The notes under the pieces are model-generated. The model saw nothing but the letters and a program-made list of their open reading frames with translations. It did no database searches and had not been told where the DNA came from. 64,000 bases of DNA. Source: Candidatus Saccharibacteria bacterium QS_5_54_17 (GTDB lineage: Bacteria; Patescibacteriota; Saccharimonadia; QS-5-54-17). The stretch covers positions 75,964-139,963 of the forward strand of contig PXOU01000018.1 in NCBI GenBank assembly GCA_003022365.1. Reading direction: 5' to 3'. Shown here piece by piece: positions 13,703 to 14,228 of the stretch. The first letter of the stretch is position 1, and the number at the start of each line of letters is the position of its first letter. A program made the position numbers and the translations under genes.

Positions 13703-13881
13703 CGCGATCCACTCTAGAAAATTACAGGGATAAATACATTTGGTGACCCCACGGGGATTCGAACCCCGGTTATTCCGGTTGTACCGGAACGTCCTGGACC
13801 TATCTTAATCTCGCGATCCACTCTAGAAAATTACAGGGATAAATACATTTGGTGACCCCACGGGGATTCGAACCCCGGTTA
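13703..13881. repeat. Tandem 69-bp direct repeat pair (13703-13771 and 13813-13881)
   Basis: Near-identical gcgatccactctagaaaattacagggataaatacatttggtgaccccacggggattcgaaccccggtta twice, 41 bp apart. Each copy contains a tRNA 3-prime half plus about 38 bp of 3-prime flank. Confidence 0.8.
13741..13800 (-). pseudogene. Truncated tRNA (3-prime ~60 nt only, no 5-prime acceptor strand)
   Basis: Reverse complement reads GGTCCAGGACG-TTCCGGTACAACCGGAA-TAACCGGGGTTCGAATCCCCGTGGGGTCACCA. T-arm and acceptor 3-prime strand are identical to tRNA-Glu; the anticodon arm differs; no matching 5-prime strand. Confidence 0.55.
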
Positions 13882-13925
13882 CCAGGCTGAGAACCTGGCG
13901 TCCTGGACCACTAGACGATGGGGCC
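13850..13925 (-). tRNA. tRNA-Glu (anticodon CUC)
   Basis: GGCCCCATCGTCTAGTGGTCCAGGACG CCAGG-TTCTCAG-CCTGG TAACC GGGGTTCGAATCCCC GTGGGGTCACCA. 7-bp acceptor stem (one GU), canonical T-arm, anticodon loop TTCTCAG, encoded CCA. Confidence 0.85.
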
Positions 13926-14168
13926 GTCAAATGTATTTATTAAAGATTCTAACATGGCTCGATCCTTCCATGATTTGAGCTGTTTTTCTCTGCGAACAGC
14001 TTCTGCTCTCGTATTATACGGTTCTTTATAAACGAGAATGACTGGAAGACGGGATTTTGTGTAACGGATTTGGCCATTTTGGTGCCGTTTTAGCCGATCT
14101 TTCAAGTTAACGGTGCTACCGATATAGTAACTGTTATCAGCGGTTTCTAAAATACACGTATAAAACAT
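13911..14168 (-). CDS. Minimal GIY-YIG nuclease family protein (85 aa)
   Basis: FYTCILETADNSYYIGSTVNLKDRLKRHQNG is a GIY...YIG...R...H..N motif set. The last 5 codons and TAG stop overlap the 5-prime end of tRNA-Glu. Confidence 0.75.
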   Translation of the reverse strand: MFYTCILETADNSYYIGSTVNLKDRLKRHQNGQIRYTKSRLPVILVYKEPYNTRAEAVRREKQLKSWKDRAMLESLINTFDGPIV

Positions 14169-14176
14169 ATTTATAC

Positions 14177-14228
14177 CCGCGTTATTCCCGTTGAACCGGA
14201 ACGTCCTGGACCACTAGACGATGGGGCC
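14177..14228 (-). pseudogene. tRNA 5-prime fragment (acceptor, D-arm, anticodon arm; no T-arm)
   Basis: Reverse complement GGCCCCATCGTCTAGTGGTCCAGGACG-TTCCGGTTCAACGGGAA-TAACGCGGG abuts the GIY-YIG start codon. First 27 nt identical to tRNA-Glu. Confidence 0.5.

Follow-up and report, generated by a model that had tools for sequence, protein, structure and literature searches.

A 64,000-nt stretch of contig PXOU01000018.1 (positions 75,964 to 139,963) from Candidatus Saccharibacteria bacterium QS_5_54_17, here called the window, carries on its minus strand one copy of a compact cassette that lies within tRNA transcription units and is conserved across phyla and tRNA isotypes. The cassette consists of a minimal GIY-YIG nuclease gene of the Slx1/UPF0213 type, a cognate palindrome, and one intact and at least one disabled copy of the target tRNA. 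Its repeats recombine, and some of its copies decay. We lean, with slightly better than even confidence, towards the view that the cassette is a selfish, homing-like element that would spread by break-induced copying via tRNA homology and regenerate its target in doing so.

Organization of the cassette in the window

In minus-strand order, the locus comprises fragment A, the GIY-YIG open reading frame (ORF), an intact tRNA-Glu(CUC), trailer copy 1, a joint, fragment E and trailer copy 2 (Table 1). A preliminary description had recognized a tRNA 5' portion, a GIY-YIG ORF and an intact tRNA-Glu on this strand, and they were confirmed, the latter two by Pfam (ORF) and by ARAGORN and Rfam (tRNA). 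The ORF does end inside the tRNA, as described, with GGC CCC ATC GTC TAG forming tRNA positions 1–15 and the stop codon positions 13–15; the overlap thus holds four codons and the stop rather than the five codons first reported. Also borne out was the identity of the first 27 nt of fragment A with tRNA-Glu: the 27-mer GGCCCCATCGTCTAGTGGTCCAGGACG occurs exactly twice in the window (14228–14202 and 13925–13899), and no such repeat arose in 100 shuffles.

After these 27 positions, the palindrome TTCCGGTTCAACGGGAA replaces the 17-nt anticodon arm of fragment A. This arm had been taken as merely diverged; it is instead cleanly swapped for a conserved, cassette-specific palindrome. Past the palindrome, the fragment is back in tRNA register (TAAC GCGGGT) as far as the T loop and ends 6 nt from the ORF start codon. 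The truncation point is the same in the related loci L001, L002, L094 and L095, and similar in L006, L011 and L091. Fragment E is a third tRNA-Glu copy that runs from the D loop (position 17) to the CCA, with its palindrome at 13789–13773; it is separated from the intact tRNA by 49 nt, and directly behind it the 38-nt tRNA trailer appears for the second time. A perfect 70-nt direct repeat (13703–13772 and 13812–13881) has a spacing of 109 nt and hence defines a 109-nt tandem unit. The intact tRNA is flanked by a 12-nt inverted repeat (13940–13929, in the last codons of the ORF, and 13850–13839). A promoter-like site directly upstream of fragment A is likely the tRNA-operon promoter, which would drive fragment A, the ORF, the tRNA and fragment E. 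Its TATACT/CATACT part is the first stretch in common with L002, whose upstream flank otherwise differs. Within the window, the cassette palindrome is confined to the cassette, and the GIY-YIG ORF is the only one. A third TTCCGG..CCGGAA hairpin, at 36877–36896, was rejected as a cassette signature and lies in ordinary coding sequence.

Table 1 Features of the cassette and of the adjoining operon in the window.
Feature	Position	Strand	Basis or remark
Promoter-like site (TTTATA, 17 nt, TATACT)	14242–14270	-	Consensus scan; directly upstream of fragment A
Fragment A, tRNA-Glu 5' portion truncated in T loop	14175–14228	-	Sequence comparison
Signature palindrome in fragment A (TTCCGG TTCAA CGGGAA)	14185–14201	-	One G-G mismatch; perfect in L001 and L002
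UPF0213/Slx1-type GIY-YIG nuclease gene, 85 aa	13911–14168	-	Pfam GIY-YIG (E-value 1.2e-13), PDB sequence matches, structure model, conservation
Leader arm ATAAATACATTT inside last codons of ORF, complementary to tRNA trailer	13929–13940	-	Inverted repeat
Intact tRNA-Glu(CUC)	13850–13925	-	Single call, ARAGORN and Rfam (60.4 bits)
Trailer copy 1, 38 nt	13812–13849	-	First 11 nt and last A of CCA (13850–13839) form trailer arm of inverted repeat
11-nt joint AGATTAAGATA between trailer copy 1 and fragment E	13801–13811	-	Kept in L001; variants in L002 and L172
Fragment E, palindrome TTCCGGTACAACCGGAA in place of anticodon arm	13741–13800	-	Sequence comparison; not in otherwise identical L086
Trailer copy 2, 38 nt, closing 109-nt tandem unit	13703–13740	-	70-nt perfect repeat
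HsdR	14785–17889	-	Type I restriction-modification operon
HsdS	18006–19148	-	Type I restriction-modification operon
DUF3800	20482–21126	-	Type I restriction-modification operon
HsdM	21123–22643	-	Type I restriction-modification operon

Two further structures were seen at the upstream end of the cassette. An AU-rich hairpin, GTATAAA-TATGT-TTTATAC (14158–14176, minus strand), holds the ORF start codon in its loop and stands where the T arm of fragment A would be; it shows a G-U-compatible change in L001 and a disruptive one in L172. An inverted repeat of 17 nt (82% complementary; 14163–14179 and 14261–14277) encloses the promoter-like site and fragment A and is kept in L001 and L172, not in L002.

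A minimal nuclease of the UPF0213/Slx1 type

Judged by sequence and by its structure model, the window protein is a minimal UPF0213/Slx1-type nuclease consisting of the catalytic module only. The Pfam profile PF01541 covered residues 3–70 at 51.6 bits, against a cut-off of 22.6. The only solved relatives found by sequence in the Protein Data Bank (PDB; phmmer) were 1zg2 (5.5e-8) and 1ywl (7.2e-7), both members of UPF0213. The structure model, with a predicted local distance difference test (pLDDT) score of 92, has one beta-beta-alpha-alpha-beta-alpha-alpha domain, for which Foldseek again ranked 1zg2 and 1ywl highest, followed by the Slx1 entries 6seh, 4xm5 and 7cq3, at 2.1–2.5 Å over ~70 residues; I-TevI and UvrC were not among the matches of the model. 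The protein accordingly belongs to the Slx1/UPF0213 lineage and not to the I-TevI/Seg homing lineage; the preliminary description had likened the locus to a free-standing homing-endonuclease event. Its statement that the gene encodes a catalytic module only was upheld, as neither Pfam nor the structure model revealed an auxiliary or DNA-binding domain in the 85-aa, single-domain protein.

A word-index protein search recovered only 4 relatives, and an exhaustive search was used instead, which returned 6,941 cluster representatives, mainly of 80–130 aa. The best relative among 185,579 species genomes was 56% identical. Wide protein alignments (A1 and A2) were too diverse for finding loci. In 97 aligned ORFs, Y15, R25, H29, E61 and K65 were invariant and Y5 was 97% conserved, and the column statistics gave no conserved Asn after E61. 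Position 5 is Tyr in L001 and L002, and Cys (Y5C) in the window and L086, so that the window copy may be catalytically impaired. In the aligned ORFs, the proportion of synonymous differences (pS) was 0.77–0.83, i.e. saturated, versus 0.18–0.29 for nonsynonymous differences (pN), and this contrast therefore marks a real protein family under purifying selection. The C-termini of many relatives are translated tRNA 5' ends (..GPIV, ..GGPVV, ..APSSNG), and some N-terminal extensions are translated T arms. A phage origin was rejected in view of the single weak match among 2.9 million viral contigs searched. Defence and phage profile libraries gave essentially no match, and membership in a defence system was rejected with only one 14-bit match in PADLOC.

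Association with tRNA genes across the family

Homologues lying beside tRNA genes, which the preliminary description had suggested looking for, proved to be the rule. In a genome set of 80 loci from species genomes (Patescibacteria, Acidobacteriota, Bacteroidota, Zixibacteria, Armatimonadota and others), a tRNA was found within 100 nt of the ORF in 64 loci, and all 71 such tRNAs were on the ORF strand; farther from the ORF, the background in these loci was 0.056 tRNA/kb. In an independent metagenome set, a tRNA was nearby in 37 of 80 loci, with 39 of 39 tRNAs co-oriented. The spacers between ORF and tRNA measured 5–25 nt or were negative, namely -14 at Glu, where the stop codon is the TAG of the D-stem sequence GTCTAG, and -9 at Pro. 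Protein clades followed tRNA isotype, layout and phylum.

Cassettes of this build were found at Glu, Met, Asp, Ala, Val and Pro tRNAs, in two forms. In Layout 1 (Acidobacteriota, Ala and Val), the order is tRNA, ORF, hairpin and tRNA 3' part, many ORFs have their stop codon in the loop of the hairpin, and the units of ORF and hairpin make tandem arrays. In Layout 2, the window type, a tRNA 5' part is followed by hairpin, ORF and tRNA, and then by further hairpin-bearing 3' parts; it was also found at tRNA-Glu in L003, L004, L006 and L091 and at tRNA-Met in L094 and L095, with protein identities of 45–73%. Either way, the ORF has the intact tRNA on one side and the hairpin on the other. This constant placement, together with the recurrence of the window-type layout, shows that fragments A and E are conserved modules and not debris. 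Hence, of the insertion footprint with a regenerated tRNA proposed earlier, the position of the ORF between a dead 5' portion and a regenerated intact tRNA still stands, while a single recent insertion followed by drift does not agree with a layout conserved at such protein identities. The preliminary description had held that conservation of the arrangement in distant relatives, with the fragment as an independent functional tRNA, would speak against an insertion; the conservation was found, the functional tRNA was not.

The signature palindrome and the tRNA copies that carry it

The family hairpin has an invariant base, 5'-TCCCG...CGGGA-3', and inner pairs that covary (GAT/ATC, GGC/GCC, GCC/GGC and GAC/GTC); its window form is TTCCGG..CCGGAA. 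Variants are distributed by clade, with TCCCGG in Acidobacteriota, TCCCGAT in Patescibacteria and at the Val loci of Bacteroidota, CCCCGCC at Pro and TTCCGG in the window group. Nearly every ORF is adjoined by copies of the local tRNA in which one arm, mostly the anticodon arm and at tRNA-Pro the D arm, is swapped for the hairpin. The density of perfect TCCCG..CGGGA hairpins was 1.19/kb up to 250 nt from an ORF and 0.064/kb in the flanks, a 19-fold difference. Outside the hairpin, the copies are usually 100% identical to the adjoining intact tRNA. Among 115 hairpin-bearing copies, the full 3' part was present in 54 and the full 5' part in 31, and most were cut off 4–15 nt from the hairpin on the other side. 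Cuts exactly 10 nt either side of the palindrome were considered and rejected as only roughly borne out, given this scatter. Mismatches within the hairpin numbered 6 G-T and 6 C-A, and thus gave no strand signal.

Some palindrome-substituted copies are read by ARAGORN as tRNAs, at times with spurious anticodons such as 'tRNA-Arg(acg)' or 'tRNA-Gln(ttg)' (L059 2884–2959, L077 2594–2953, L037 330–407 and L064 3237–3313). The hairpin variant in L064 scored 40.7 bits with Rfam, compared to 60.1 for the true gene. Genome annotations of such loci will go wrong.

Variants at other targets

At tRNA-Ala(UGC) of Patescibacteria, the order is a 5' half (...TTTG), TCCCGAT, the ORF, the palindrome ATCGAGGATCCTCGAT, an intact tRNA-Ala, ATCGGGA and a 3' half (CAA...). 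When the two halves are joined, the anticodon loop TTTGCAA is restored exactly. The intact tRNA lies inside leader/trailer helices of 7–14 nt, the sequence of which varies by locus with complementarity kept (~11 of 13 loci). Likewise, the leader/trailer pair of L004, AATAAAAACAAC and GTTGTTTTTATT, differs from that of the window, yet is complementary.

In Patescibacteria loci without a tRNA, the ORF bounded by TCCCGAT...ATCGGGA adjoins the start of rpmE, of tpiA or of a zinc-ribbon gene, in the order diverged 5' gene fragment, TCCCGAT, ORF, ATCGGGA, complete gene. The similarity of the two gene copies starts at the ATG, and at rpmE and tpiA the 5' duplicates are diverged alleles. Another tRNA-free clade (~100 aa, MAWMYILKC...) lies amid arrays of imperfect palindromes in both orientations that resemble repetitive extragenic palindromes (REPs) and have TCCCGC..GCGGGA tips; repeat motifs were found in 22 of its 31 loci, with the ORF stop inside a repeat unit.

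The motifs in this clade (L104–L167, 31 loci; e.g. L117 330–1160 and L122 1040–2110) are GGTCGAGTAG and GTATCGAGACC with their complements. In the Patescibacteria loci L014 (2841–3000), L017 (2845–3000) and L109 (1070–1190), nested or tandem related palindromes (TGCGCGAT..ATCGGCA and TTCCGAC..GTCGAGAA) lie in the upstream tRNA remnant, and this nesting suggests repeated rounds of insertion.

Copy number and decay among close relatives

Five related contigs carry the cassette. In L001, the ORF has Tyr5 and both palindromes are perfect. L002 is the same in these respects; its flanks differ on both sides, and its fragment E carries the T arm and acceptor of another tRNA-Glu allele (CCCGCCGGGGTC, as in L004). 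L086 matches the window, including Cys5, and is missing the 109-nt E unit. The loss of exactly one unit of joint, fragment E and trailer (L086 2400–3000 versus window 13703–13881) is consistent with recombination between the 70-nt perfect repeats. L172 (2961–3450) has an 11-nt frameshifting deletion in the ORF, with loss of His29, and a 1-nt deletion in the downstream (E) palindrome, and by these lesions it is a decaying copy. One species-level cluster thereby holds intact copies, a catalytic-residue mutant, a frameshifted copy and a repeat-unit indel. The window cassette, from its Y5C change and the mismatched palindrome in fragment A, is probably an already disabled copy.

Unit number also varies elsewhere. 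L024 has one unit of ORF and hairpin more than the syntenic L023, the number differs between L066 and L083, and L005 is a degenerate array. Look-ups via the flanking 288-aa and 118-aa proteins led to contigs that end at repeats (L087 and L088), lack synteny (L089 and L171) or bear the cassette (L086 and L172). The exact intact tRNA-Glu(CUC) had no match in the metagenome contigs of the Joint Genome Institute (JGI).

Candidate explanations

In the selfish, homing-like course of events that we favour, the nuclease would break DNA at the palindrome or a few nt from it, i.e. in tRNA-gene loops, and repair of the break would copy a template that bears the cassette, conserved tRNA sequence serving as the homology arm. 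The end that lies in the conserved target would invade and copy the cassette, and the other end would be joined illegitimately, because only the conserved target gives homology between genomes. The product would be a 'fragment of target - cassette - complete target', in which the essential tRNA would stay functional and the cassette would be expressed from the tRNA promoter. Arrays such as fragment E would arise later, as the repeats undergo unequal recombination and gene conversion.

Several observations fit this scheme. The break points lie in tRNA loops, a few nt from the palindrome: at D loop positions 16/17 in fragment E, at T loop positions 54/55 in fragment A, and in the anticodon loop at tRNA-Ala(UGC). 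As for homing endonucleases, the targets are highly conserved sequences, namely tRNA, rpmE and the ANWKMN-coding start of tpiA. The duplication of the target begins precisely at the onset of homology between genomes, and the two copies can be different alleles, as expected from one-ended, homology-primed copying from a donor. Co-conversion of flanking target sequence was seen in fragment E of L002, with its foreign tRNA-Glu T arm and acceptor, and in the rpmE and tpiA duplicates. The palindrome, as an extruded hairpin, is taken to be the cis-site of the nuclease because the protein lacks a DNA-binding domain and belongs to a structure-specific lineage; this is the weakest step of the argument.

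Other observations weigh against the homing-like reading. The tracking of isotype and phylum by protein clade is also compatible with long vertical inheritance. No unoccupied tRNA-Glu locus, as would be expected in a related genome if the ORF had inserted, was found among the related contigs reached via neighbour genes, so that mobility at this locus stays a conjecture. The truncation points show no single position, and the equal counts of G-T and C-A mismatches do not separate a DNA-level from an RNA-level function. Moreover, the sequence conservation of the palindrome is explained solely by assuming nuclease binding, and the intact tRNA beside the ORF remains a potential target of self-cleavage.

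It is conceivable, though unlikely, that the palindrome itself is the mobile part, as in REP/RAYT systems, with the GIY-YIG gene a largely immobile, possibly domesticated mobilising nuclease and the tRNA copies its preferred landing sites. The tRNA-free clade set in REP-like arrays, with ORF stops inside the repeat, would be at home in such a system, as would the ORF-free arrays of up to 6–11 hairpin-bearing tRNA copies (L066, L083 and L054) and the co-variation of palindrome variants with protein clade. The window palindrome, however, is confined to the cassette, with the look-alike at 36877 in ordinary coding sequence, hairpins far from ORFs are rare, and the arm is swapped nucleotide for nucleotide and not inserted, which simple transposition does not predict. 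Strict co-orientation, together with spacers or overlaps that leave no space for a separate promoter or Shine-Dalgarno sequence, could alternatively mean that the ORF is a host-beneficial tRNA-operon gene. The tRNA mimics and the leader/trailer helices would then be processing or stability signals (of RNase P, RNase Z or RNase III type) for the ORF mRNA, or regulatory RNAs, and the nuclease may act on RNA or in tRNA-gene maintenance. We regard this as rather improbable. It would accommodate the covariation of the leader/trailer helices at the intact tRNA (window versus L004; tRNA-Ala(UGC) loci) and of the inner base pairs of the hairpin, the long-term fidelity of clade to isotype, and the TrmH fusion of a related GIY-YIG domain (PMC1564403). 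But at Glu-type loci, RNase P cleavage would take off the ORF stop codon, and the hairpin stands upstream or downstream of the ORF by clade, always on the side away from the intact tRNA, which suits DNA symmetry better than mRNA logic. Nor are G-U pairs in excess over C-A mismatches, the outer 5 bp keep one and the same sequence, an uncommon trait in RNA helices, and Rfam matched tRNA only. The frameshifted (L172) and catalytic-Tyr mutant copies in close relatives and the tandem and degenerate arrays argue against an essential host role.

The inverted TCCCGAT and ATCGGGA around the Patescibacteria ORF could also be the terminal inverted repeats of a cut-and-paste DNA transposon that has a GIY-YIG transposase and inserts into hairpin loops, and the precise splitting of the tRNA-Ala(UGC) anticodon loop, with halves that rejoin to TTTGCAA, points the same way. 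We give this little credence: the palindrome arms do not enclose the ORF in the window or in Acidobacteriota, where it lies beside them, the target is regenerated by duplications of 19–54 nt from the gene start and not by a fixed-length target-site duplication, and GIY-YIG proteins are not known to act as transposases. Least probable, and very much so, is that a free-standing homing endonuclease gene entered tRNA-Glu once, in a single lineage, and that the 5' fragment orphaned in the process then decayed neutrally. Such an event would leave a non-functional fragment A whose first 27 nt equal the intact gene, and a window copy with signs of decay, as observed. It would not leave the same fragment architecture and palindrome family in distant elements and at other tRNAs, neutral decay would hit fragments A and E independently whereas they share the palindrome, and the protein falls outside the Seg/I-TevI lineage.

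Going beyond the homing-like reading of the cassette, we tentatively raise the possibility that UPF0213 is the nuclease of a new class of hairpin-guided elements. A TCCCG..CGGGA hairpin or cruciform would be recognised and cut a few nt either side; in several phyla, such elements would have specialised on tRNA genes via palindrome-bearing tRNA copies as homology-armed vehicles, always regenerating a working tRNA or gene start. If true, this class would represent a neutralisation strategy distinct from introns and inteins.

Relation to known systems

By analogy, phage SegB is the nearest precedent. SegB-type phage enzymes have a DNA-binding region besides the catalytic domain. In phage T4, SegB is a GIY-YIG homing enzyme within a tRNA cluster that recognises a motif of the T-psi-C stem-loop (PMC2330249), and it drives segmental amplification of tRNA genes (PMC13096335); enzymes of this type favour the inheritance of themselves and the adjacent tRNA and are statistically associated with tRNAs in phages (PMC2330249, PMC13096335). 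Both SegB and the window cassette thus present a GIY-YIG gene amid co-oriented tRNA genes. In contrast to SegB, the window protein has 85 aa, is chromosomal, belongs to the Slx1/UPF0213 lineage and is virtually absent from viral contigs, and its ORF runs into the tRNA and is accompanied by tRNA copies with a palindrome in place of an arm, neither of which is described for SegB.

With the UPF0213 proteins of known structure (BH0048, 1zg2; EF2693, 1ywl), the window protein shares family and fold, the restriction to a catalytic module and the lack of a conserved C-terminal Asn. The 2006 survey of GIY-YIG proteins reported methyltransferase neighbours and a TrmH fusion, and no link to tRNA genes or palindromes (Dunin-Horkawicz et al., PMC1564403), so that the tRNA and palindrome context of the present cassette is additional to UPF0213 as surveyed. 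Branched and stem-loop DNA are substrates of Slx1, which is active in tandem rDNA repeats (PMC1564403). Its nuclease domain in the Slx1–Slx4 entries superposes on the model as given above, and Slx1 offers a plausible parallel for a nuclease acting on palindromes that extrude in arrays of tRNA repeats. In comparison with Slx1–Slx4, the window protein is bacterial and cassette-encoded and has neither a RING domain nor an Slx4 partner.

Islands and prophages with a tyrosine integrase use a tRNA gene as their insertion site, make the tRNA whole again and leave behind a displaced partial copy, which forms a direct repeat. These elements are kilobases long, encode the integrase and duplicate the tRNA 3' end, whereas the cassette measures ~0.4 kb, has no integrase nearby and duplicates a 5' or a 3' part, with one arm replaced by the palindrome. 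An integrase island was rejected for the window in view of the absence of a nearby tyrosine or serine recombinase and of kilobase-scale cargo (49 nt from the tRNA to fragment E); no recombinase gene was found among the cassette neighbours, i.e. the type I restriction-modification operon and unannotated ORFs. REP/RAYT systems (REPtrons) and IS200/IS605 elements resemble the cassette in having a small nuclease gene flanked by hairpin repeats with a conserved base and a covarying inner stem. RAYT and TnpA are HUH/Y1 enzymes. The cassette enzyme, in contrast, is of the GIY-YIG type, and REPs are dispersed genome-wide, whereas cassette palindromes cluster around the nuclease gene as parts of tRNA copies. 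Group I introns in the anticodon loops of bacterial tRNAs (PMC3984707) likewise interrupt a tRNA at loops, restore its function and carry an endonuclease ORF; they differ in having a ribozyme and in restoring function by splicing, where the cassette uses target duplication. A group I intron was rejected here as there is no ribozyme, Rfam having found tRNA only (E-value scan of 13000–15000 and gathering-threshold scans of 8 related loci).

In the literature covered, i.e. open-access papers and bioRxiv, we came across no report that connects UPF0213/Slx1-like genes with tRNA genes or with palindromes. The tRNA-embedded nuclease/palindrome cassette is of a widespread and apparently undescribed kind. 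If the proposed reading is true, it would give a biological role to UPF0213, a large orphan family with structures solved since 2005. Duplication and regeneration would be a third route, besides self-splicing introns and inteins, by which a selfish nuclease gene can be harmless in an essential target. The reading would also account for the pseudo-copies of tRNAs and the tandem tRNA-like arrays that confuse tRNA annotation in Acidobacteriota, Bacteroidota and Patescibacteria, and the pairing of an 85-aa nuclease with a defined hairpin would provide a tractable model of how Slx1-type enzymes recognise DNA structure.

Genomic surroundings

The only other tRNA in the window, tRNA-Leu(CAA) at 35706–35791 on the plus strand, has no GIY-YIG gene, palindrome or partial copy nearby. 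Directly upstream of the cassette lies a type I restriction-modification operon (14785–22643, minus strand; Table 1). The flank of the tRNA locus is a variable region, since L001, L171 and L172 hold a Ham1-like gene in place of this operon. In L171, a 111-kb JGI contig whose upstream gene is 90% identical, the position of the window cassette is taken by a GmrSD-like (type IV restriction) gene at 3019–5148.

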